From: an uncultured delta proteobacterium
GTDB taxonomy: Bacteria > Myxococcota > Myxococcia > Myxococcales > Anaeromyxobacteraceae
DNA length: 64,000 nucleotides
Direction of reading: 5' to 3'
Assembly: GCA_963766715.1 (NCBI GenBank)
Contig: CAVYBH010000015.1
Location: 364,756 to 428,755, forward strand
Part shown: piece after piece, positions 23,236 through 38,664 of the stretch
Position numbering within the stretch: the first letter of the stretch is position 1
Layout of the letters: each line of letters begins with the position of its first letter
Notes under the pieces: generated by a model
The model's input: the letters and a program-made list of their open reading frames with translations, nothing else
The model's database searches: none
Told to the model about the DNA's origin: nothing
Translations under genes and position numbers: made by a program

Positions 23236-24283
23236 ATGTCCAAGGAGAGGGAGATCCGCGAGCAGCTGGAGGAGGCCGCCACGCACGGCGCCCGGCCGGC
23301 CAAGGCACAGGCCGCGCTCGCCCAGGTCCCGCGCCTCTTCGACGAGCTGGCCGCGCTGGAGGGCGAGCTCACGCGCGCCACCGCCGACGCCGAGGCCACG
23401 CTCCGGTCCGCCGCCCGCCACCTGGTGGCCGCCGGCGGGAAGCGCATCCGCCCCACCGTGGCGCTGCTCGCCTGCGGCGCGTGCGGGGGCGACATGGCCG
23501 CGGCCGTGCCCTTCGGCGTCGCCGCCGAGCTGACCCACTCCGCCACCCTCCTTCACGACGACGTCATCGACGACGGGCCGCTGCGCCGCGGCCAGCCCGC
23601 CTCCCGCGTCATCTGGGGGAACACGGTCTCGGTCCTGGCCGGCGACTGGCTGCTCACCCGATCCCTCGAGATCGTCGCCGGACACCCCGCGGCGGCGCGC
23701 GCCCTCCCCGCCCTGCTCGCCACCATGCGCCGGCTGGTCGAGGGCGAGGTGAAGCAGCTCTCGCTCCGCGGCGGCTTCCGGGCCACCGAGCGCGACTACT
23801 TCGAGGTCATCGAGGGCAAGACCGCGTCGCTCTTCGGCTGGGCCTGCGCGGCGGGCGGCTGGGCGGCGGGCGCCGACGGCGACGTCCCGGCGGCGCTCGG
23901 ACGGTTCGGCGAGGGCATCGGAACCGCCTTCCAGCTCGTCGACGACGCGCTCGACTACGCCGCGGACCCGGCCCAGCTCGGGCAAGCGGCTGGGCGCCGA
24001 CCTCGTCGAGGGGAAGGCCACCCTGCCCCTCATCCGCGCGCTGGCCGCCGAGCCGGCGCTCCGGGCCCGGCTCGCGCCCATCGCCGACGGCGCCGATCCC
24101 ACCGACGACCTCTGCCTCGAGGTGATCGCCTCGGTGAAGCGCACGGGCGGCGTCGAGGCGGCGCGCGCACTGGCGCGGGAGCAGACCCGCGAGGCGCTGG
24201 CCGCGCTCGAGCAGGTTCCCGACGGCCCCCACCGGCGCGCGCTGGTCGAGGCCGCCGTGGTGCTCACCGAGCGGGCTTTCTAG
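23236..24283 (+). CDS. ispB: Long-chain polyprenyl diphosphate synthase (frameshift ~23983)
   Basis: GGKRIRP, LLHDDVID, RRG, GD, KTA, FQLVDD; second frame gives ..GADLVEGKATLP. Confidence 0.9.
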
Positions 24284-25552: not shown

Positions 25553-26395
25553 TCAGCGCTCCTGGAACTCGGGCGTCACTGGCGGTACGAGCCCGAGCGC
25601 GGCCGCCTCGGCCAGGAAGAGGCGCACGGCCTCCTTGCCCTTCGGCCCGGCGTCGCGCGTCCAGTCGTTCACGTACATGCCGACGAACTTGTCGGCCTGC
25701 GCGCGCGGCAGCCCGCGGGCGAACCCCATGGCGTAATCGAGCGCCTGCTCCCGGTGCGCCAGGCCGTAGTCCACCGTCTCGGCCATGACCCGGGCCAGCG
25801 TCCGCCGGAGCGGCGCGGGCAGGTCGCGCCGGAGCGCGTTCATGCCGAGCGGCAGCGGCAGGCCGGTGCGCTCCTTCCAGCTCACCCCCAGGTCCTCGAT
25901 GACGCGGAAGCCCTCCTCCCGCGCGGTGAGCTGCCCCTCGTGGATGACCAGGCCGGCCTCGGCCTTCCCCAGCTTCACCGCCCGTCCCACGTCCTTGAAG
26001 TCGACGTACATGGGGTCGAAGCCGGGGATGCGCATCCGGAGCGCCAGCACGGCGCTGGTCCACGGGCCGGGGACGGCGATGCGCGCCCGCCCCAGCTCCT
26101 CGAGCCGCCCGAACTGGGAGGTCTGGTTCACGATCACCGTGGGCCCGTAGCCGTCGCCGAAGGAGGCGCCGGCGTCGAGCAGCAGGTACTTGTCGTGCAG
26201 GTGGGCGTAGGCGTGCACGGAGATGGCGGTGATGTCGTGCACCACCTCCTGCGCCTTCTGGTTGAGCGACTCGATGTCCCCGAACTCCTGCACGAACTCG
26301 AGCCCGTCGGCCTTCACCGCGCCGGAGAAGAGCCCGTAGAACATGAACGCGTCGTCGGAGTCGGGGCTGTGGGCCACCCGGATCGTCTGCGGCAT
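25553..26395 (-). CDS. mqnD: 1,4-dihydroxy-6-naphthoate synthase
   Basis: HSPDSDDAFMFY, DIESLN, SFGDGYGP, IHEGQL, LPLPLG, MYVN motifs. Confidence 0.92.
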   Translation of the reverse strand: MPQTIRVAHSPDSDDAFMFYGLFSGAVKADGLEFVQEFGDIESLNQKAQEVVHDITAISVHAYAHLHDKYLLLDAGASFGDGYGPTVIVNQTSQFGRLEELGRARIAVPGPWTSAVLALRMRIPGFDPMYVDFKDVGRAVKLGKAEAGLVIHEGQLTAREEGFRVIEDLGVSWKERTGLPLPLGMNALRRDLPAPLRRTLARVMAETVDYGLAHREQALDYAMGFARGLPRAQADKFVGMYVNDWTRDAGPKGKEAVRLFLAEAAALGLVPPVTPEFQER

Positions 26396-26411
26396 GGGCG
26401 CCACTCATATC

Positions 26412-26429
26412 TTTCAGCGATCGTTGAAA
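26412..26429. promoter_or_regulatory. Palindromic operator between divergent mqnD and ubiD-like gene
   Basis: TTTCAGCGATCGTTGAAA: near-perfect AT-rich inverted repeat in a ~65-bp divergent spacer. Confidence 0.65.
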
Positions 26430-26462
26430 CAAGTGGCGGATGGGAGTAGATCCCGCCATCCC

Positions 26463-27977
26463 ATGGCCTACCGGTCCCTGCGCGAATTCCTCGATCGACT
26501 GGCGCGGGCCGGCGAGCTCACCCGCGTCCCCGAGCCCGTCGACCTCCGGCTCGACATGGCGGCCCTCGCCGACCGCGCCGCCAAGCAGGGCGGCCCGGCG
26601 CTCCTCTTCGAGAAGCCCTCCTCCGGCGTCATGCCGGTGGCGATGAACCTCTTCGGGACCCGGCGCCGCGCCGCCTGGGCGCTGTCCTGCGAGGACCTCG
26701 AGGAGCCGGCCAACGAGCTGCGCGCGCTGCTCAAGATGGCGCCGCCGCAGGGGCTCTGGGACAAGCTCAAGATGATCCCGAAGCTCGGCAAGCTGGCCGC
26801 GCTGCCGCCGAAGCACGTCTCGTCCGGGCCGGTGCAGGAGGTGGTGGACCGCGAGCCCGACCTGGGGTCGATCCCGGTGCTCACCACCTGGCCCCACGAC
26901 GGCGGCCCCTTCATCACCCTGCCGCAGGTCATCACGCGCGACCCGGAGACCGGGATCCGCAACGTCGGGATGTACCGCTGCCAGGTGATGGGGCCCCGCA
27001 AGCTCGGCCTCCACTGGCAGCTCCACAAGACCGCCCACGCCCACTGGCGCGCCTACCGGAAGCGCGGCGAGCGCATGCCGGTGGCCATCGCGCTGGGCGG
27101 CGATCCGGCCCTCACCTACTGCGCGTCGGCGCCGCTCCCGCCGGGCATCGACGAGTACCTCTTCGCCGGCTTCCTGCGGAAGGAGTCGGTGCACATGGTG
27201 AAGGGCGTGACCGTGGACCTGGAGGTCCCGGCCGAGGCCGACGTGGTCATCGAGGGCTACGTCTCCGACGGCGGCGTGGTCCGCGAGGGGCCCTTCGGCG
27301 ACCACACCGGCTACTACTCGCTCGCCGACGACTATCCCTTCCTCGAGGTCACGGCCATCACGCGCCGCAAGGACGCCATCTACCCGGCCACGGTGGTCGG
27401 GCCGCCGCCGATGGAGGACTACTGGATGGGCACCGCCACCGAGCGGCTCTTCCTGCCCATGCTCCAGCTGGTCTTCCCCGAGGTGGTGGACATGTCCTTC
27501 CCGCCGGAGGGGGTGTTCCACAACCTCTGCTTCCTCTCGGTGAGGAAGGACTTCCCCGGCCACGCCAAGAAGCTCATGCACGGCCTGTGGGGCTCGGGGC
27601 AGATGTCGGCCACGAAGACGCTGGTGGTCTTCGACGAGGACGTCGACGTCCACGACTTCTCCCAGTGCGCCTGGCGCGCCTTCGCGAACGTCGACGCCAG
27701 GCGGGACATGGTGGTGGTCGACGGCCCGGTCGACGTGCTCGACCACGCCTCCACCGCCTTCGGCCTGGGGGCCAAGGTGGGCATCGACGCCACCAAGAAG
27801 TGGGTCGAGGAGGGCGGGCGCGAGTGGCCGGAGCCCTGCGTGCACCCGCCCGAGGTGATCGCCCGCATGGACGCCCTCTACGAGCGGCTCGTCCCCGGGG
27901 CGCCCGCGCCGGTGCGCCCGCGCATCGCGCCGCCGCCCGCCGCCAGCTGGACGCCGCGCCGCGGGAGCGGGGCGTGA
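26463..27977 (+). CDS. ubiD: UbiD-family menaquinone biosynthesis decarboxylase (MqnL)
   Basis: PALLFE, DGGPFIT, RNVGMYR, EGPFGDHTGYY, GPPPMED, GIDAT motifs; futalosine context. Confidence 0.92.
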   Translation: MAYRSLREFLDRLARAGELTRVPEPVDLRLDMAALADRAAKQGGPALLFEKPSSGVMPVAMNLFGTRRRAAWALSCEDLEEPANELRALLKMAPPQGLWDKLKMIPKLGKLAALPPKHVSSGPVQEVVDREPDLGSIPVLTTWPHDGGPFITLPQVITRDPETGIRNVGMYRCQVMGPRKLGLHWQLHKTAHAHWRAYRKRGERMPVAIALGGDPALTYCASAPLPPGIDEYLFAGFLRKESVHMVKGVTVDLEVPAEADVVIEGYVSDGGVVREGPFGDHTGYYSLADDYPFLEVTAITRRKDAIYPATVVGPPPMEDYWMGTATERLFLPMLQLVFPEVVDMSFPPEGVFHNLCFLSVRKDFPGHAKKLMHGLWGSGQMSATKTLVVFDEDVDVHDFSQCAWRAFANVDARRDMVVVDGPVDVLDHASTAFGLGAKVGIDATKKWVEEGGREWPEPCVHPPEVIARMDALYERLVPGAPAPVRPRIAPPPAASWTPRRGSGA

Positions 27978-28678
27978 GCGGCGTTCCCCTTCCCGGGCAG
28001 GGCGAGCGGGCCCAGGCGGTGCGGGCCATGTTCGACCGCATCGCGCCCACCTACGACCTGCTCAACCGCGTGATGACGCTGCGGGTCGACCAGCTCTGGC
28101 GCCGCAAGCTGGTGCGGACGCTCCGGCTCGCGCCGGGCGAGCGGCTCCTCGACGTCTGCGCCGGGACCATGGACGTGGCCGCCGAGGCCCGCCGCCGGTA
28201 CCCCGAGGCCATCGTGCTGGGCAGCGACTTCTCCATCCCCATGCTGTCGCGCGGAGCGGCCAAGACCGGCCTCCCCGCCGCCACCGCCGACGCCCTCCAC
28301 CTCCCCTTCCGCCCGGGCTCGGTCGACGCCGTCACCGTGGCCTTCGGCGTGCGCAACCTGGACAGCCACGAGGCCGGCCTGGCCGAGCTGGCCCGGGTCA
28401 TGAAGCCCGGCGCCCGCCTGGGAATCCTCGAGTTCTTCCGGCCCGAGTCCACCGGCACGCGCGCCTTCCACGGCGCCTACAACCGGCTGGCCCTGCCGGT
28501 GATGGGGCGCCTGCTCTCCGCCGACGCCGACGCCTATCGCTACCTGGTCGAGTCGATGGAGCGCTTCGCGTCCATGCCCGAGTTCGTGGCCGCGGCGGAG
28601 CGGGCCGGCTTCCGCGACGTCCGCGGGGAGGCGCTCTTCCCCGGCGTCTGCGGCCTGGTCACGGGGGTGCGCGCGTGA
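27974..28678 (+). CDS. menG: Demethylmenaquinone methyltransferase
   Basis: MFDRIAPTYDLLN, LDVCAGT, DALHLPF, AFGVRN, ILEF, YRYLVES motifs. Confidence 0.92.
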   Translation: MSGVPLPGQGERAQAVRAMFDRIAPTYDLLNRVMTLRVDQLWRRKLVRTLRLAPGERLLDVCAGTMDVAAEARRRYPEAIVLGSDFSIPMLSRGAAKTGLPAATADALHLPFRPGSVDAVTVAFGVRNLDSHEAGLAELARVMKPGARLGILEFFRPESTGTRAFHGAYNRLALPVMGRLLSADADAYRYLVESMERFASMPEFVAAAERAGFRDVRGEALFPGVCGLVTGVRA

Positions 28679-29268
28679 AGATCGTGGTCGGCGTGGGCGG
28701 CGCGTCCGGAGCGCCCTATGCGAAGCGGCTGCTCGACTTCCTGGCCCGCGAGGGGCCGGCGGCGGGCGTCTCGGTGGACCTGGTCTTCACCACCACCGGC
28801 CGCCAGATCTGGACCCACGAGATCGGGTCGGCGCCCGACTACCCGTTCCGGGTCTGGAAGAACCAGGACCTCACCGCGCCCTTCGCCTCCGGGAGCGCCC
28901 GGTACGACGCCATGGCCATCGTGCCCTGCTCGGCGGCGGGGCTGGCCCGGGTGGCCTACGGCGTCTCCACCGACCTGGTGGGGCGCGCCGCCGACGTGAT
29001 GCTCAAGGAGCGCAAGCGGCTCGTGCTCCTGCTCCGCGAGACCCCCATCTCCCTCATCCACGCCCGCGCCATCGCGCAGGTGGTCGAGGCGGGGGCCTTC
29101 GTCATGCCGGCCACGCCCAGCTTCTACTCCCAGCCGAAGACCATCGACGAGCTGGTGGACACCGTGGTGGCCCGGGTGCTCGACCGGCTCGGGATCCCCA
29201 ACGAGATGATGCGCCGCTGGGACGGGATCTCGCCCCACCACTGCGGCGATCCGACGGAGGTAGCCTGA
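28675..29268 (+). CDS. ubiX: UbiX-family flavin prenyltransferase
   Basis: GASG, ASGS, PCS, RAADVMLKE, RETP, PSFY motifs. Confidence 0.93.
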   Translation: MKIVVGVGGASGAPYAKRLLDFLAREGPAAGVSVDLVFTTTGRQIWTHEIGSAPDYPFRVWKNQDLTAPFASGSARYDAMAIVPCSAAGLARVAYGVSTDLVGRAADVMLKERKRLVLLLRETPISLIHARAIAQVVEAGAFVMPATPSFYSQPKTIDELVDTVVARVLDRLGIPNEMMRRWDGISPHHCGDPTEVA

Positions 29269-30416
29269 TGCTCTCTTCCCTGGCACACCGCGCGCTCGAG
29301 CGGGACGGGCTCGGCCCGATCCGCGACAAGGTGCTCGCCGGCGAGCGGCTCACCGAGGCCGAGGCCGTCACCCTCTTCGAGGCCCGCGACCTGGCCGCGC
29401 TGGGCGCGCTCGCCAACCACGTCCGCGAGCAGCGGCACGGCGACCTCACCTTCTACAACCGCAACGTCCACCTGAACCCCACCAACGTCTGCGTGGCGAC
29501 CTGCAAGTTCTGCTCGTTCGCGCGCCCGGACGACAAGCACGCCAGCGAGGGATACACGATGTCCCTCGAGCAGTCGGTGCAGCACGTGGTCTCGAAGCGC
29601 GCGCTGGGGATCACCGAGGTGCACATCGTCTCCGGGCTGCACCCCGACCTTCCCTGGGAGTACTACCTCGAGACCATCCGGCGGATCCGCCAGGCCTGGC
29701 CGGAGCTGCACATCAAGGGGTACACCGCGGTCGAGCTGCACTTCTTCGCCGAGAAGTTCGGGAAGACCCACGAGCAGGTCCTGCGCGAGCTCATCGACGC
29801 CGGGCTCACCACCATCCCGGGCGGCGGCGCCGAGATCTTCGCCTCGCGGGTCCGCCGGAAGATCTGCGACGACAAGGCCACCGCCGAGCAGTGGCTCGAG
29901 GTGCACCGCGCCGCCCACCGGCTGGGGCTCAAGTCGAACGCCACCATGCTCTACGGGCACATCGAGACCCTGGCCGAGCGGGTCGACCACATGGCCCGGC
30001 TGCGCGCGCTCCAGGACGAGACCGGCGGCTTCCAGGTCTTCATCCCGCTCGCCTTCCACCCCGAGCACAACATGATCGGCAAGGCCTTCCCGAAGCCCAC
30101 CGGCTACGACGGCCTGCGCACCTTCGCGGTGGCGCGCCTCTTCCTCGACAACTTCGACCACGTGAAGGCGTACTGGGTGTCGCTCGGCGAGCGCCTGGCC
30201 CAGGCCTCGCTCTCCTTCGGGGTCGACGACGTGGACGGCACGGTGCTCGAGGAGCGCATCTACCACATGGCCGGGGCCACCACGCCCCAGGCCCTCTCCG
30301 AGGCCCAGCTCCACCGCATGATCCGCTTCGCCGGGCGCGTGCCCGCCGAGCGCGACAGCCTCTACCACGTGCTCCGGGTCCACGAAGCCCAGGCGCCCGT
30401 CCCCGCCACCGCCTGA
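29268..30416 (+). CDS. mqnE: Aminofutalosine synthase (radical SAM)
   Basis: CVATCKFCSF, EVHIVSGLHP, PGGGAEIF, NATMLYGHIE, HVKAYW, DGTVLEERI motifs. Confidence 0.92.
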   Translation: MLSSLAHRALERDGLGPIRDKVLAGERLTEAEAVTLFEARDLAALGALANHVREQRHGDLTFYNRNVHLNPTNVCVATCKFCSFARPDDKHASEGYTMSLEQSVQHVVSKRALGITEVHIVSGLHPDLPWEYYLETIRRIRQAWPELHIKGYTAVELHFFAEKFGKTHEQVLRELIDAGLTTIPGGGAEIFASRVRRKICDDKATAEQWLEVHRAAHRLGLKSNATMLYGHIETLAERVDHMARLRALQDETGGFQVFIPLAFHPEHNMIGKAFPKPTGYDGLRTFAVARLFLDNFDHVKAYWVSLGERLAQASLSFGVDDVDGTVLEERIYHMAGATTPQALSEAQLHRMIRFAGRVPAERDSLYHVLRVHEAQAPVPATA

Positions 30417-30423
30417 GGCAGAG

Positions 30424-32294
30424 ATGAAGCTCCGCGCCGCAGCCGTCTCCTTCCTGAACGCGCGCCCCCTCACCGCGGGGCTCGCCGGCAGTCCCCTCAT
30501 CGACCTGGTGCTGGCCGAGCCCTCGCTGTGCGCCTCGATGCTCGAGGCCGGCGACGTGGACCTGGCGCTCCTCCCGGTGGGCGCGCTGCCCGGGCGCGAC
30601 TGGGAGGTGGTGCCGGGCATCGGCATCGGCGCCGACGGGCCGGTGCAGACCGTGGTGCTCGCCGGCGAGGAGCCGCCCGAGCGCGTGGGACGAGGTCTTC
30701 CTCGACACCGCCTCGCGCACCTCGCAGATCCTGGCCCAGCTGGTGATGCGCGAGCGCGGCCTCTCGCCCCGCTACACGCACATGCCCGCGCTCGAGGGGC
30801 TGGCCCGCGCCGTCGGGCCCGAAGGGGGCGCTGGTCATCGGCGACCGGGCCTTCGACGTGAGGAAGAAGGTGGTCCTCGACCTCGCCCGCGAGTGGAACC
30901 GGCTCACGAAGCTCCCCATGGTCTTCGCCGTCTGGGCGGCGCGGCCCGGCGCGCTCCGCCCCGAGGACGTCCAGGAGCTGGCCCGCGGCGCGCAGGTCGG
31001 GCTGGGGATGCGCACCGAGCTGGCCCAGCAGTTCGCCCGCGAGGCCGGCGGCGATCCGGAGGCCTACCGCCGCTACCTGACCCAGAAGATCCGCTACGGC
31101 CTGGGGCCCCACGAGCTCGACGGGCTGGAGGCCTTCCTCTCCCGCGCCGCCGAGGCCGGCCTGGTCCCGCCCACGGCGCTGCGCTTCGCCGACGACGTGG
31201 TGCGCAGCCGCCGCATCCGCCGCGCGGTGTCGATCGACCTGGCCCTGCAGAAGGGGGCCGACGGCGTCCGCCTCGACCCCGACGAGGCCGAGGCGCTCGA
31301 CGAGAAGGCGCCGCTGCTCGAGCTGGGGCTGGCCGCCGACATGCGCCGCCGCGCGCTCCACCCGGACGGCGTGGTCACCTACATCGTGTCGCGCAACATG
31401 AACTACACGAACGTGTGCACCACGGCGTGCTCGTTCTGCGCGTTCTACCGCCCCCGCGGCCACGGCGAGGCCTACGTCCTCGACCGCGGCCAGATGGCGA
31501 GGAAGATCGAGGAGACGCTGGCGCTGGGCGGCATCGAGATCCTGCTGCAGGGCGGCCTCCACCCCGACCTGGGCGTCGAGTGGTACGAGGACCTCTTCCG
31601 CTGGGTGAAGTCCACCTACCCGGCCATCAACCTGCACGCGCTCTCTCCCGAGGAGATCTGGCACATCGCCCGCACCAGCCAGCTGTCGCTCGACGCCACC
31701 GTCGACCGGCTGGTGGCGGCCGGGCTCGACTCGATCCCGGGCGGCGGGGCCGAGGTGCTCGACGACGAGGTGCGCCGGCGCATCGCCCCGCTCAAGTGCT
31801 CCACCGACGAGTGGCTCACGGTCATGCGGGCCGCCCACCTCAAGGGGCTGAGGAGCACCGCCACGCTGATGTTCGGCGTGGGCGAGGACTCCCGGCAGCG
31901 CGTGAACCACTTCCTCCGGCTGCGCGAGCTGCAGGACGAGACCCAGGGGTTCACCGCCTTCATCTGCTGGACGTTCCAGCCGGAGAACACGCGGCTCGAT
32001 CCGTCGGACAACAGCGCCCACGCCTACCTGCGCGTGAACGCGCTGGCCCGGCTGGTCCTCGACAACGTGCCCAACTTCCAGGCCTCCTGGGTGACCATGG
32101 GCGGCGGCGTCGCCCAGGCCTCGCTCCACATGGGCTGCAACGACTTCGGCAGCGTGATGATCGAGGAGAACGTGGTGAGCGCGGCGGGGACCACCTTCCA
32201 GATGGACTCGGAGGAGGTCGAGCGCCACATCCGCGACGCCGGGTTCCAGCCGGCGCGCCGCAACATGCGCTACCAGCTCATCGGGCAGGCCTAG
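30424..32294 (+). CDS. mqnA-mqnC: Fused MqnA chorismate dehydratase - MqnC cyclic dehypoxanthinyl futalosine synthase (frameshifts ~30680, ~30822 within the MqnA part)
   Basis: MqnA motifs VSFLNARPL, SRTS, LVIGDRA, DLAREW..T.LPMVFAVW; the last runs in frame into MqnC RNMNYTNVCTTACSFCAF, LLQGG, QASWVT, DFGSVMIEENVV. Confidence 0.85.
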
Positions 32295-32303
32295 GGATCC
32301 CGC

Positions 32304-33513
32304 GTGCCCGTCCGCGTCGTCGCCGCGCCCTGGGTGCTTCCCGGACCGGACGCCGCCCCCTGGGCCGACGGCGCGGTCGCGCTCGACGGCGACCGGGTCG
32401 TCGACGCGGGGCCGCGCGCCGAGGTCGAGGCGCGCCACGGCCCGGCCGGGCCGATCGACGCGGTGATCCTCCCGGCGCTGGTGAACGCGCACCTCCACCT
32501 GGAGCTCACCCACCTGGCCGGGAGGGTGCCCGGGCGGCGGCGGCCTGGTCCGGTGGATCGAGGCGCTGGTGGCGGCCCGGGCGCGCGGCGGGGCCATCGA
32601 GGAGGGCATGGCCCGGGGCGCGGCGGCGCTGCGCGAGGCGGGCGTGGCCGCGGTGGGCGACGTGACGAACGGCCTCGGGTCCGGGACGTCACCTGGCGCA
32701 CGAGGGGATCGCCGGCACGCTCTTCCTCGAGATCTACGGATTCTCCGAGGAGCGGGCCGGCGAGCGCGCTGCGGCTGGCCGGCGAGCTCCGGGCGCGGAT
32801 GGGCGATCCGGGCCCGGGCCTCCGCGTGGCGCCGAGCCCGCACGCCGTCTACTCCACCCACCTCCCCACCGCCGCCTCGCTGCTCCGGGCGGGGCCGGCG
32901 TCAATCCACCTCGCCGAGGTGCCCGAGGAGCGCCGGTTCGTCGCCGAGGCGTCCGGCCCCTTCGCCGATCTCGTGCTGCGGCTCGGGCTCGCCGCCCGGC
33001 GAGCTCCGCCCCTTCGCCCGGTCTCCGGTGGCCGCGGTCGCGGCCCACCTCGGGCCGGAGTCGCTGGTGGTGCACGCGGTGGACGTGGACGACGAGGACC
33101 TGGCCGCGCTGCGCCGGTCCGGCGCCACCGTGGTGCTCTGCCCGCGGTCGAACCGGCACATCTCCGGCGTCCTCCCCGACCTGCCGCGGCTGCTCGCGGC
33201 CGGCATCCCGCTCGCCGTCGGGACCGACTCGCTCGCCTCGTCGCCGTCCCTCTCGCCGCTCGAGGAGCTGGCGGTGCTGCACCGGGCCTTCCCGGAGGTC
33301 GACCCGCGGCGCCATCGCTCGCGCTGGCGCTGGAACGGCGCCGCGGTGGGCGCCCCGGCGGTGGGACGGCTCTCCCCGGGCTCGGCTCCCGGCGTGCTCG
33401 CCGCTCCGCTCCGCGGCGAGCGGCCCGCCGACCCGTTCGCCTGGCTCCTCGAGAACGCGCCCCCTCGCCCCTTCGAGTGGCTCGCCCGCCACCGGCCGGA
33501 GTCCCGCGCATGA
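32304..33513 (+). CDS. Amidohydrolase, probable aminodeoxyfutalosine deaminase (several frameshifts)
   Basis: NAHLHLE, SPHAVYS, IHLAE, VHAV, CPRSN, GTDSLAS motifs; located inside the mqn operon. Confidence 0.75.
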
Positions 33514-34380
33514 CCGTCGGCGCCGTCGCACGAATGGTGAAGTTCTCCCACTCCCTCTTCGCGCTGCCCTTCGCGGTGAGCGCGGTGGTGCTGGTGGCCG
33601 GGCAGGCCACCCTCGACCCGGTCCGGCTGGGCCTCGTCGCGCTGGCCGTGGTGGCGGCGCGCACGGCCGCCATGGCCATGAACCGCATCGCCGACCGGCG
33701 GTTCGACGCGGCGAACCCGCGAACCCAGGCCCGGGAGCTGGTCACCGGCGAGGTCTCGCCCGCGTCGGCCCGGCTCCTGCTCGCGGCGTCGAGCCTCGCC
33801 TTCGTCGCGGCGGCGGCGCTCATCTCCCCGCTCACCGGCTGGCTCGCGCTGCCGGTGCTCGCCATCCTGCTCGGCTACTCCTACGCCAAGCGCTTCACCT
33901 GGGCGTGCCACCTCTGGCTCGGCGTGGCCCAGGCGCTCGGGCCGATCGGCGTGGCCATCGCGCTCACCGGAACCGCGCCGCCGGCGGCGCTGCTGCTCGG
34001 CCTGGGCGTGGGCGCCTGGATCGGCGGCTTCGACGTCTTCTACTCGATGCAGGACATGGAGTTCGACCGCTCGCAGGGGCTCGAGTCCATCCCGGCCCGC
34101 TTCGGGATCGACGGGCGCGCTGGGCTGGGCCCGCGGGCTCCACGCGCTCGGCGTGGCCGCCATCCTGGCCGCCGGCTCGGTGGGGCGGCAGGGGCCGTCC
34201 TGGTTCCTGGGCACGGCCATCCTGGCGGCGGTCCTCCTCGCCGAGCACCTCTACGTGGCGCCCCACGGCGAGCTCCGGCCGGAGCGGATCGGCAAGGCCT
34301 TCTTCGACTTCAACGCCTTCGCCTCGGTGGCCTTCGCGCTCTGCGCCATCGCCGGCCTGCTGCTGCGGGGGCACGCATGA
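33510..34380 (+). CDS. mqnP: UbiA-family polyprenyltransferase (MqnP; frameshift ~34112)
   Basis: KFSHSLFALPF, ARTAAMAMNRIADRRFDAANPRT, YSYAKRFT, GFDVFYSMQD motifs. Confidence 0.88.
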
Positions 34381-34973
34381 GCCCCTCGGGCGGCGGCGCG
34401 GCCTCGCCGTTGCCGGCTCCGGCGTCCGGCGTCCGCCGGGCGGAGCTCCGGGCCGCGGACGCGGTGGGCGCGCTCATGGAGCTGTGGGGCTTCAAGCGGC
34501 AGCTCGGTCGCGTCTGGACCATCCTCTTCCTGTCGGAGCAGCCGCTCGGCGCGGCCGAGGCCTGCGAGCGGCTGGGCATCTCCACGGGGCTGCTCTCCAT
34601 GTCCCTCGCCGAGCTGCGGGCCTGGGGCGCGGTCCGGAACGTCCCGGTCCCCGGCGAGCGCCGCGAGCGCTACGCGGCCGAGGTCGACGTGTGGCGCATG
34701 GTGCAGCGGGTGCTGGGGACGCGGGAGCGCCTGGCGCTCGACCGCGCCCTCGCCGCGTTCCAGGAGTCCCTGGCCGAGCTCCGCGCCTCGATGGTGGACG
34801 CCGACCCCGAGGTCCGCGCCGCGGCCCGGTTCCGGGTCGAGCGGCTGGAGCGGCTCGTGGCGCTGACGCGCGGCGCGGTCGGCCTCCTGGGCGCGCTCCT
34901 CCAGAGCGCGCGCGTGGACCTCTCCCCGCTGAAGGCCCTCTCCGACGCCATCGCCGGCCGGCGCAGGACCTAG
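34377..34973 (+). CDS. GbsR/MarR-family winged-helix transcriptional regulator
   Basis: WGFKRQLGRVWTILFLSEQPL..E..ERLGISTG.LSMSL.EL..WG.V..PGERRERYAAE.D.W; ATGA overlap with mqnP. Confidence 0.85.
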   Translation: MSPSGGGAASPLPAPASGVRRAELRAADAVGALMELWGFKRQLGRVWTILFLSEQPLGAAEACERLGISTGLLSMSLAELRAWGAVRNVPVPGERRERYAAEVDVWRMVQRVLGTRERLALDRALAAFQESLAELRASMVDADPEVRAAARFRVERLERLVALTRGAVGLLGALLQSARVDLSPLKALSDAIAGRRRT

Positions 34974-37549: not shown

Positions 37550-38664
37550 ATGCTGTCGCCAGAGGTCCTCCAGAAGCTGGAATCGATCGAGCGCCGCTTC
37601 GAGGAGCTGACGCACCACCTCTCCGATCCGGCGGTGGCCTCCTCCGGCGAGCGCTTCAAGAAGGTCTCGAAGGAGCGGGCCGGCCTCGAGCCGACCGTGG
37701 TGGCGCTCCGCGCCTGGCGCAAGATCCAGCAGGAGATCGCCGACAACGAGGCCCTGCTCGCCGAGAAGGACGAGGGCATCCGGGAGATGGCCAAGGAGGA
37801 GCTGGCGGCGCTGCGCCCCGGGTCGATCCGGCCGAGGAGAACCTCAAGGTCTTCCTCATCCCCCGCGACCCGAACGACGACAAGGACGTCATCGTGGAGA
37901 TCCGGGCCGGCGCCGGGGGCGACGAGGCCGGGCTCTTCGCGGCCGAGCTCCTGCGCATGTACCTCCGCTTCGCCGAGCGCCGCGGCTGGCGCTGCGAGGT
38001 GGTCGACGTCTCCGGCAGCACCATGGGCGGCGTGAAGGACGCCACGGTCACCATCAGCGGGGACACCGTCTACTCCCTGATGAAGTACGAGTCGGGCGTC
38101 CACCGGGTCCAGCGCGTCCCCGCCACCGAGGCGCAGGGGCGCATCCACACCTCCACCGCCACCGTGACGGTCATGCCCGAGGCGGAGGAGATCGACGTCC
38201 AGGTCAACCCCGCCGACCTGGAGATCGACGTCTTCCGCTCCACCGGCTCGGGCGGCCAGAGCGTGAACACCACCGACTCCGCGGTCCGCATCACCCACAA
38301 GCCATCCGGACTCGTGGTGAAGTGCCAGCAGGAGAAGAGCCAGACCAAGAACCGGGCCCAGGCCATGAAGATGCTGCGCGCCAAGCTCTTCGAGATCGAG
38401 ATCGAGAAGCAGCGATCCTCCCGGGACGCCACCCGCAAGAGCCAGGTGGGCACCGGCGACCGCTCCGAGAAGATCCGGACCTACAACTTCCCGCAGGACC
38501 GGCTCACCGATCACCGCATCAACCACACCCGGCACAACCTGCCGGCGGTCATGGACGGCGACATCCAGGACCTGATCGACGCCTGCCGGACCCACTTCGC
38601 CGCCGAGGCCCTCAAGGAGGCCTCGAAGAGCGACTCCGCCCGGGCGGCCGAGAAGCGGGCTTGA
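37550..38664 (+). CDS. prfA: Peptide chain release factor 1 (frameshift ~37820)
   Basis: PAT (PxT) motif in [22 protein letters not shown]. Confidence 0.95.

Follow-up and report, generated by a model that had tools for sequence, protein, structure and literature searches.

How bacteria set their menaquinone level by transcription is poorly known, and the locus described here raises the question of whether one regulator and one operator do so for a whole set of genes. A 64,000-nucleotide stretch (the window) of contig CAVYBH010000015.1 (assembly GCA_963766715.1), from an uncultured member of the Anaeromyxobacteraceae, carries an operon of futalosine-pathway genes that begins with ubiD and ends with a gene for a GbsR-like regulator, and a palindrome lies in the spacer between ubiD and the divergent mqnD. 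Comparison with related genomes gives good support to this candidate regulon as a real one. The GbsR-like protein is very probably a repressor that would act at TTCA-N8-TGAA, blocking the promoters of the ubiD operon and of mqnD, and a member of a myxobacteria-wide subfamily concerned with menaquinone supply. In the best reading of these comparisons, it would repress menaquinone supply and would have been retained with either ring pathway, rather than being specific to the futalosine one.

The operator candidate and its loss with the regulator gene

The spacer between the ATG of mqnD (position 26395, minus strand) and that of ubiD (26463) measures 67 bp and contains, as an earlier note on this DNA had described, a palindromic operator candidate, TTTCAGCGATCGTTGAAA (26412 to 26429; TTTCAG and TTGAAA around CGATCG), supported by pattern search and a family matrix. 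Within the window, it was the single match to TTTCAR-N6-YTGAAA with at most one mismatch, and none of 100 shuffled sequences yielded such a match. The genome scan that the note had suggested, with a TTTCAG-N6-YTGAAA-type pattern, returned the operator as the sole match without mismatches in the 4.2-Mb genome. With the family matrix, the operator scored 34.8 bits and the next-best site 12.2, and neither the pattern nor the matrix scan gave a further site in this genome close to the operator score. The bare TTCA-N8-TGAA pattern matched 12 times, and none of these matches besides the operator was judged relevant. In the window's genome, the regulon appears to be down to a single box. The family consensus, TTCAACGAWCRTTGAA, has TTCAAC; the G of the window's TTTCAG was found in 8 of 66 genomes, all within its genus.

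Phylogenetic footprinting of the spacer was also run across relatives. A relative of the regulator was found in 74 of the 92 genomes of the family (some matches being partial, at contig ends) and ubiD in 87, of which 86 entered the alignment of ubiD upstream regions. The alignment has the consensus TTCAACGAWCRTTGAAA, and the 17 bases rightward of it vary freely. TTCA of the left arm and TTGAAA were invariant in all 66 regulator-bearing genomes, i.e., the arms of the palindrome were conserved wherever the regulator was present, and the regulator gene lay about 8 kb past the ubiD start in 29 of 29 operon-length stretches containing it.

Nine genomes carry clean deletions, in which the assembly covers the operon through mqnP and no regulator is found there or elsewhere in the genome. 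The left arm was intact in one of them, and the right arm, TTGAA, was retained in all nine. In 11 further genomes with an unassembled regulator slot, the box was kept in seven and lost in four, those four lying inside regulator-less clades. The UbiD tree (made, like the others, by FastTree; G035 was left out of it because of a short alignment) placed four independent losses of the regulator, in G060 (the sister of the window's genome), in G063, in genus g8 and in part of g11. The box had decayed in three of them, the exception being G063, whose branch since parting from G058 measures just 0.002 substitutions per site. The three decays together fell on about 11% of the tree length, giving a rough P of about 0.001 when the four genomes with lost boxes and unassembled slots are counted as regulator-less. 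Overall, conservation and co-loss support the pairing of regulator and operator that the earlier note had proposed.

The right arm, TTGAAA, is probably the -35 element of the ubiD operon, since a conserved TAGA(G/T)A-type hexamer follows 17 bp past it in the family alignment, about 10 nt from the ubiD ATG. The promoter predicted from column conservation in the 66 genomes spans 26424 to 26452 on the plus strand (-35 TTGAAA, 17 bp, -10 TAGATC), and with 10 nt from this -10 to the ATG the transcript is predicted to be nearly leaderless. On the minus strand, conservation of the -35 element predicts an mqnD promoter at 26404 to 26432, with -35 TTGTTT (26427 to 26432), 17 bp and -10 TATGAG (26404 to 26409). 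Where mqnD is adjacent, TTGTTT was found in 46 of 50 genomes, versus 9 of 36 where it is not; eight of these nine belong to the regulator-less g11 clade, in which another gene is divergent, the -35 is kept and the left arm is lost. Outside the regulator-less clades, the left arm was kept in 25 of 25 genomes without adjacent mqnD, and it was lost in eight regulator-less genomes that retain the divergent -35; the left arm is therefore not a mere promoter element. From the g11 clade, which keeps the divergent -35 without it, the left arm is required by neither promoter. The earlier idea of one operator for both arms of the locus is supported by this placement, with the box overlapping the ubiD -35 and filling the -35/-10 spacer of the predicted mqnD promoter, and a single bound dimer would cover both predicted promoters.

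The regulator itself (198 aa; 34377 to 34973, plus strand), the final gene of the operon, matched the hidden Markov model (HMM) MarR_2 above cut-off, and its best PDB match by sequence was MJ223 (1KU9; E value, 7e-11). An AlphaFold2 model with a mean predicted local distance difference test score of 83.9 shows an N-terminal winged helix-turn-helix and a long helical C-terminal domain. The top Foldseek match of this model was likewise 1KU9 (E value, 1.1e-6; template-modeling score, 0.43 to 0.52), and source annotations name the homologues "GbsR (MarR family)"; the names of homologues also assign the genome to the Anaeromyxobacteraceae. By sequence similarity and modeled fold, the protein can be placed among the GbsR-type MarR regulators (MJ223/COG1510-like). 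Residues G, W, G, F and G at about positions 31 to 44 were invariant in all 55 non-paralogue relatives. The osmostress subgroup (GbsR, OpuAR, OpcR and CudC) was considered and rejected: the CudC HMM (NF047500), which has a cut-off of 218 bits, gave the protein a score of 38, no choline or betaine genes adjoin it, and the aromatic cage was not found, its position being taken from the description in PMC6207618 rather than from a direct alignment to Bacillus subtilis GbsR. The 21-residue segment after the wing has two aromatic residues (Y99 and W106), and in the relatives it has two at most in 41 of 55 and never more than four. The CydE/CioR subgroup was set aside by context, as no cydAB adjoins the gene and the neighbors are mqn, men, polyprenyl synthase or mevalonate genes.

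Targets across the myxobacteria and gene content of the locus

A polyprenyl-diphosphate synthase gene, overlooked in the earlier note, lies about 1.3 kb past the end of mqnD (23236 to 24283, plus strand, with the end coordinate taken from the shifted frame of a frameshift near its 3' end). Matches to polyprenyl synthase HMMs, below the equivalog cut-offs, suggest a long-chain, IspB/HepT-like enzyme for the menaquinone tail. Pattern searches gave 0 to 3 sites per family genome and none in the reversed control, and the extra site lies directly 3' of the predicted -10 of this polyprenyl synthase gene. In a survey of 85 genomes, an exact TTCA-N8-TGAA was present there in 60 of the 63 that lie outside the window's genus (g1) and were not shown to be regulator-less, and in none of the nine of the regulator-less g8 and g11 clades. 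In contrast to this gene, dxs was rejected as a general regulon member, with a box in 1 of 30 loci (in G049).

In a sample of the phylum, 229 of 301 genomes had a relative of the regulator (the tally includes G239 and paralogue-only matches). Among 40 distant contexts, hand-picked from the top-listed matches on long contigs, the adjacent gene was polyprenyl synthase in 33, 3-hydroxy-3-methylglutaryl coenzyme A (HMG-CoA) reductase in three, a men operon in one and nothing related in three. In family f3 (G233 and G227), the regulator is followed by polyprenyl synthase, menG, ubiX, mqnE, mqnA, mqnC, deaminase and mqnP genes. In the named Myxococcaceae, the polyprenyl synthase gene was directly 5' of the regulator at 80 of 80 loci, with a box upstream of it at 73 of the 76 that have enough sequence (control, 5 of 4,426 windows), and Myxococcus xanthus (L263) has the regulator-box pair. 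The isochorismate synthase gene, menF, also has an upstream box, at 27 of 29 loci (control, 0 of 225) among the best 30 of 56 matches, G239 excluded; 3-deoxy-D-arabino-heptulosonate 7-phosphate (DAHP) synthase and menG are usually divergent at these box loci. At 18 of 19 loci in family f14, the regulator diverges from a polyprenyl synthase or menF gene and the box lies in the intervening DNA; in G112, men genes share that divergent operon with those for polyprenyl synthase, DAHP synthase and HMG-CoA reductase. In family f24, mevalonate diphosphate decarboxylase is adjacent at seven of eight loci, and the box is present at the four with HMG-CoA reductase. No MqnC above cut-off was found in the five men- or mevalonate-linked genomes tested. 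A regulon dedicated to the futalosine pathway, as the earlier note had put it, is therefore rejected, because in other myxobacteria the box and the relatives of the regulator accompany classical men, polyprenyl synthase and mevalonate genes.

Some further genes were seen at these loci. An open reading frame (ORF) of about 350 aa without a Pfam or NCBIfam match lies between ubiX and mqnE in the f3 operon of G233 (L198:12811-13878), and an AIG2-like gene lies 3' of the regulator in several Myxococcaceae (L213:10315-10833). G128, where the regulator stands alone, has a strong box (L463, G128:C10:105773) upstream of a PfaD-like enoyl reductase gene (NMO and FabD_helical_ins matches), possibly a rewiring to lipid synthesis.

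The window locus contains mqnA, mqnC, mqnD and mqnE by HMM. The divergent mqnD-type gene (25553 to 26395, minus strand) matched Pfam VitK2_biosynth with an E value of 5e-62. On the plus strand follow the ubiD/mqnL decarboxylase (26463 to 27977; TIGR03701, 640 bits, above the equivalog cut-off), the menG methyltransferase (27974 to 28678; TIGR01934) and ubiX/mqnM flavin prenyltransferase (28675 to 29268; TIGR00421) genes, both above the subfamily cut-off, and the aminofutalosine synthase gene mqnE (29268 to 30416; TIGR03700, above the equivalog cut-off). The next three genes are frameshifted in the assembly: an mqnA-mqnC fusion (30424 to 32294; MqnC above the equivalog cut-off, MqnA by Pfam VitK2_biosynth), an amidohydrolase that is a probable aminofutalosine deaminase (32304 to 33513; weak NF006269 and Amidohydro_1 matches) and mqnP, a UbiA-family prenyltransferase gene (33510 to 34380; UbiA-like HMM above the subfamily cut-off). 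The content described in the earlier note stands, with the regulator last and its start (34377) overlapping the mqnP stop as ATGA; its translational coupling needs a small correction, in that five of the seven junctions overlap and mqnE/mqnA and mqnC/deaminase are separated by 7 and 9 nt. The ATGA overlap is not family-wide, a short gap being found in most relatives. Classical menD was not found above cut-off in any of five mqn genomes, including the window's own (85% complete), and neither was MqnB (futalosine hydrolase) in the latter, though its operon has the probable deaminase.

The frameshifts in mqnA-mqnC and the deaminase are most likely assembly errors. Extra bases at 30684/5, about 30814 to 30818, 32529, 32686 and 32761 are missing from near-identical contigs (two to four of four DNA runs; the break in mqnP is not among the positions covered), and mqnA-mqnC is a single ORF in 44 of 48 relatives. 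Numerous single-base frameshifts in ordinary genes (23236 to 24283, 30424 to 34380 and a release-factor-like gene at 37550 to 38664) point to an unpolished assembly. As to mqnD, the MqnD-like proteins of the family seem to fall into two almost mutually exclusive types, one operon-adjacent (59 to 87% identity) and one distant (about 30%) and encoded elsewhere, with both in G042. A protein of about 90 to 100 aa with conserved cysteines and no Pfam match replaces the divergent mqnD in several genomes (L062:1176-1469 in G082; L081; L070).

Mode of action and alternatives

We suggest that the regulator would bind the box directly as a winged-helix dimer and would repress by steric occlusion of RNA polymerase, since the box covers the -35, fills the -35/-10 spacer or sits just 3' of the -10. 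Occlusion has been described for OpcR, GbsR, CydE and CioR (PMC7396694, PMC6096048, PMC11837568). The regulator would also repress its own gene (negative autoregulation), because this gene lies in or beside the target operon. Regulator and box are found with mqn and men genes, with the genes for polyprenyl and DAHP synthases and with mevalonate genes, and all of these targets, for ring, tail and precursor, would shift in one direction.

The signal is the weakest step of this explanation. Menaquinone or the status of the quinone pool could be sensed, a choice we hold tentatively and favor because the two ring pathways are not known to have a common naphthoate intermediate before the prenylated quinone and because all targets would move one way. 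A prenyl diphosphate would fit the CrtR precedent described below and the constant link to polyprenyl synthase and is a rather doubtful candidate; equally doubtful is a signal of the CydE and CioR kind, from a metal, an anion or another stress. It is a realistic, if still tentative, possibility that the GbsR subfamily of myxobacteria serves as a dedicated sensor for menaquinone homeostasis, detecting the quinone or its prenyl tail; it would control ring, tail and precursor supply via one TTCA-N8-TGAA box and would have kept this role while the ring pathway was swapped between futalosine and men, two unrelated routes.

Several observations weigh against a menaquinone-supply repressor of this kind. 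Just nine genomes are confirmed as regulator-less, from four loss events, and G063 retains the box though the regulator is gone. The polyprenyl synthase box is absent from 13 of 13 genomes of the window's own genus and is missing in regulator-positive G021, and in G025; at f24 loci, the box is missing from four of eight. Three of the 40 distant contexts (G128, G346 and G184) have no adjoining quinone or isoprenoid gene, and the hand-picking of these contexts counts here as well. The regulator tree has no outgroup and its deep branches are poorly resolved, so that the proteins linked to mqn, men and mevalonate genes are not proven orthologues. Finally, neither a strict sigma-70 scan nor a terminator scan gave a match in the spacer or the operon; the former misses both predicted promoters because their -10 elements end without the final T.

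Quinone synthesis is often under global control, and the palindrome might be bound by another global redox or respiration regulator while the GbsR-like gene merely travels with the operon, as the persistence of the G063 box without the gene would allow. However, both boxes disappear where the GbsR-like gene is deleted, the box tracks the gene across differing target genes, and 0 to 3 boxes per genome are unlike a global regulon. Moreover, the GbsR-type protein CydE is described as binding a site of the same outer shape (PMC6096048). We consider such a global regulator very unlikely.

It is also hardly probable that binding of the protein to the box leads to activation, or that its sign differs between promoters. 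The Myxococcaceae polyprenyl synthase box abuts the predicted -10 (TATATG) within the promoter spacer, a geometry used by some activators, but in the window's family the box covers the -35 or sits 3' of the -10, lineages that lost the gene retain the pathway and the predicted promoter elements, and the characterized GbsR-type proteins described in PMC6096048, PMC11837568 and PMC7396694 are repressors. The palindrome could, in addition, be a mere by-product of two back-to-back promoters, given that the predicted ubiD -35 coincides with its right arm and that the AT-rich spacer houses both. The behavior of the left arm, which persists in the 25 genomes without a divergent mqnD and was lost in eight where the divergent promoter stays, together with a polyprenyl synthase box placed 3' of the -10 and clear of any promoter hexamer, makes this an extremely remote alternative.

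Comparison with known systems and significance

About twenty genomes of the family have a second GbsR-like gene, 35 to 48% identical to the regulator and followed by a gene for an NAD-binding (NmrA/epimerase-like) protein; it was not found in the window's genome. This paralogue is on a long branch in the regulator tree and has its own box, GTTCAGAWTATTCTGAAC, 5' of the gene, often with a second copy between the two genes (L141 to L159, e.g., G071:C35:51792-52151). Its box is nearer than the mqn-operon box to the footprinted CydE site (PMC6096048). Because the paralogue has a box of its own with the same outer shape, close to the CydE site, the comparison supports TTCA-N8-TGAA as a GbsR-type recognition shape, in which the inner bases would give specificity. 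The earlier note had mentioned a cydAB-linked site similar to the palindrome. The CydE site, TATTTCAGAAATTTCTGAAAGTTCA, is indeed described (PMC6096048) and shares the TTCA-N8-TGAA outer shape, but the agreement in TTTCAG is partly accidental, given TTCAAC in the family consensus, and the two sites are unlike in their inner bases (AACGATCGT here against GAAATTTC).

CydE of Alishewanella sp. WH16-1 (PMC6096048) and CioR of Chromobacterium violaceum (PMC11837568) are described as GbsR-type repressors of cytochrome bd operons, with sulfate as the reported signal for the former and cyanide in vivo, and iron or zinc in vitro, for the latter. They share with the regulator studied here a GbsR-type winged helix, a gene placed in the operon that they repress (or, here, would repress) and a target in the respiratory chain. 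Unlike theirs, the predicted myxobacterial targets are quinone synthesis genes and not an oxidase, and the regulator signature, WGF(K/R)R..GR.W, is distinct. Bacillus GbsR, OpcR and OpuAR (PMC6207618, PMC7396694) and CudC (NF047500) share the structural prototype MJ223 (1KU9), and the Bacillus proteins are described with AT-rich inverted-repeat operators at or just 3' of promoters; they differ in acting on osmoprotectant genes, with choline or betaine as ligand via a predicted six-phenylalanine aromatic cage (PMC6207618). CrtR of Corynebacterium glutamicum (PMC5401885), compared by description only, is a MarR-type repressor whose small regulon consists of genes that consume isoprenoids, and it is released from DNA by prenyl diphosphates (geranylgeranyl diphosphate); it differs in its carotenoid operon and TTAA motif and is not termed GbsR-type in the description used.

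The main text of a GbsR family survey (PMC6207618) has neither "quinone" nor "myxo," and its supplements could list myxobacterial members. A search of titles and abstracts, with subscription journals, regulon databases and supplements outside its coverage, gave no description of a GbsR-like menaquinone regulator and no dedicated regulator of either menaquinone pathway. New in this analysis are the test for joint loss, the placement of one box at two promoters and the occurrence of the pair with either ring pathway.

Such a regulator could yield a quinone or prenyl biosensor. Since Myxococcus xanthus carries the regulator-box pair and is genetically tractable, the candidate is directly testable. 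With it, the GbsR family would extend past osmoprotection and cytochrome bd. Differences in regulation have been raised as an open hypothesis for the frequent exchange of the two menaquinone pathways (PMC13386864); one regulator-box pair across both pathways argues for shared regulation in myxobacteria.

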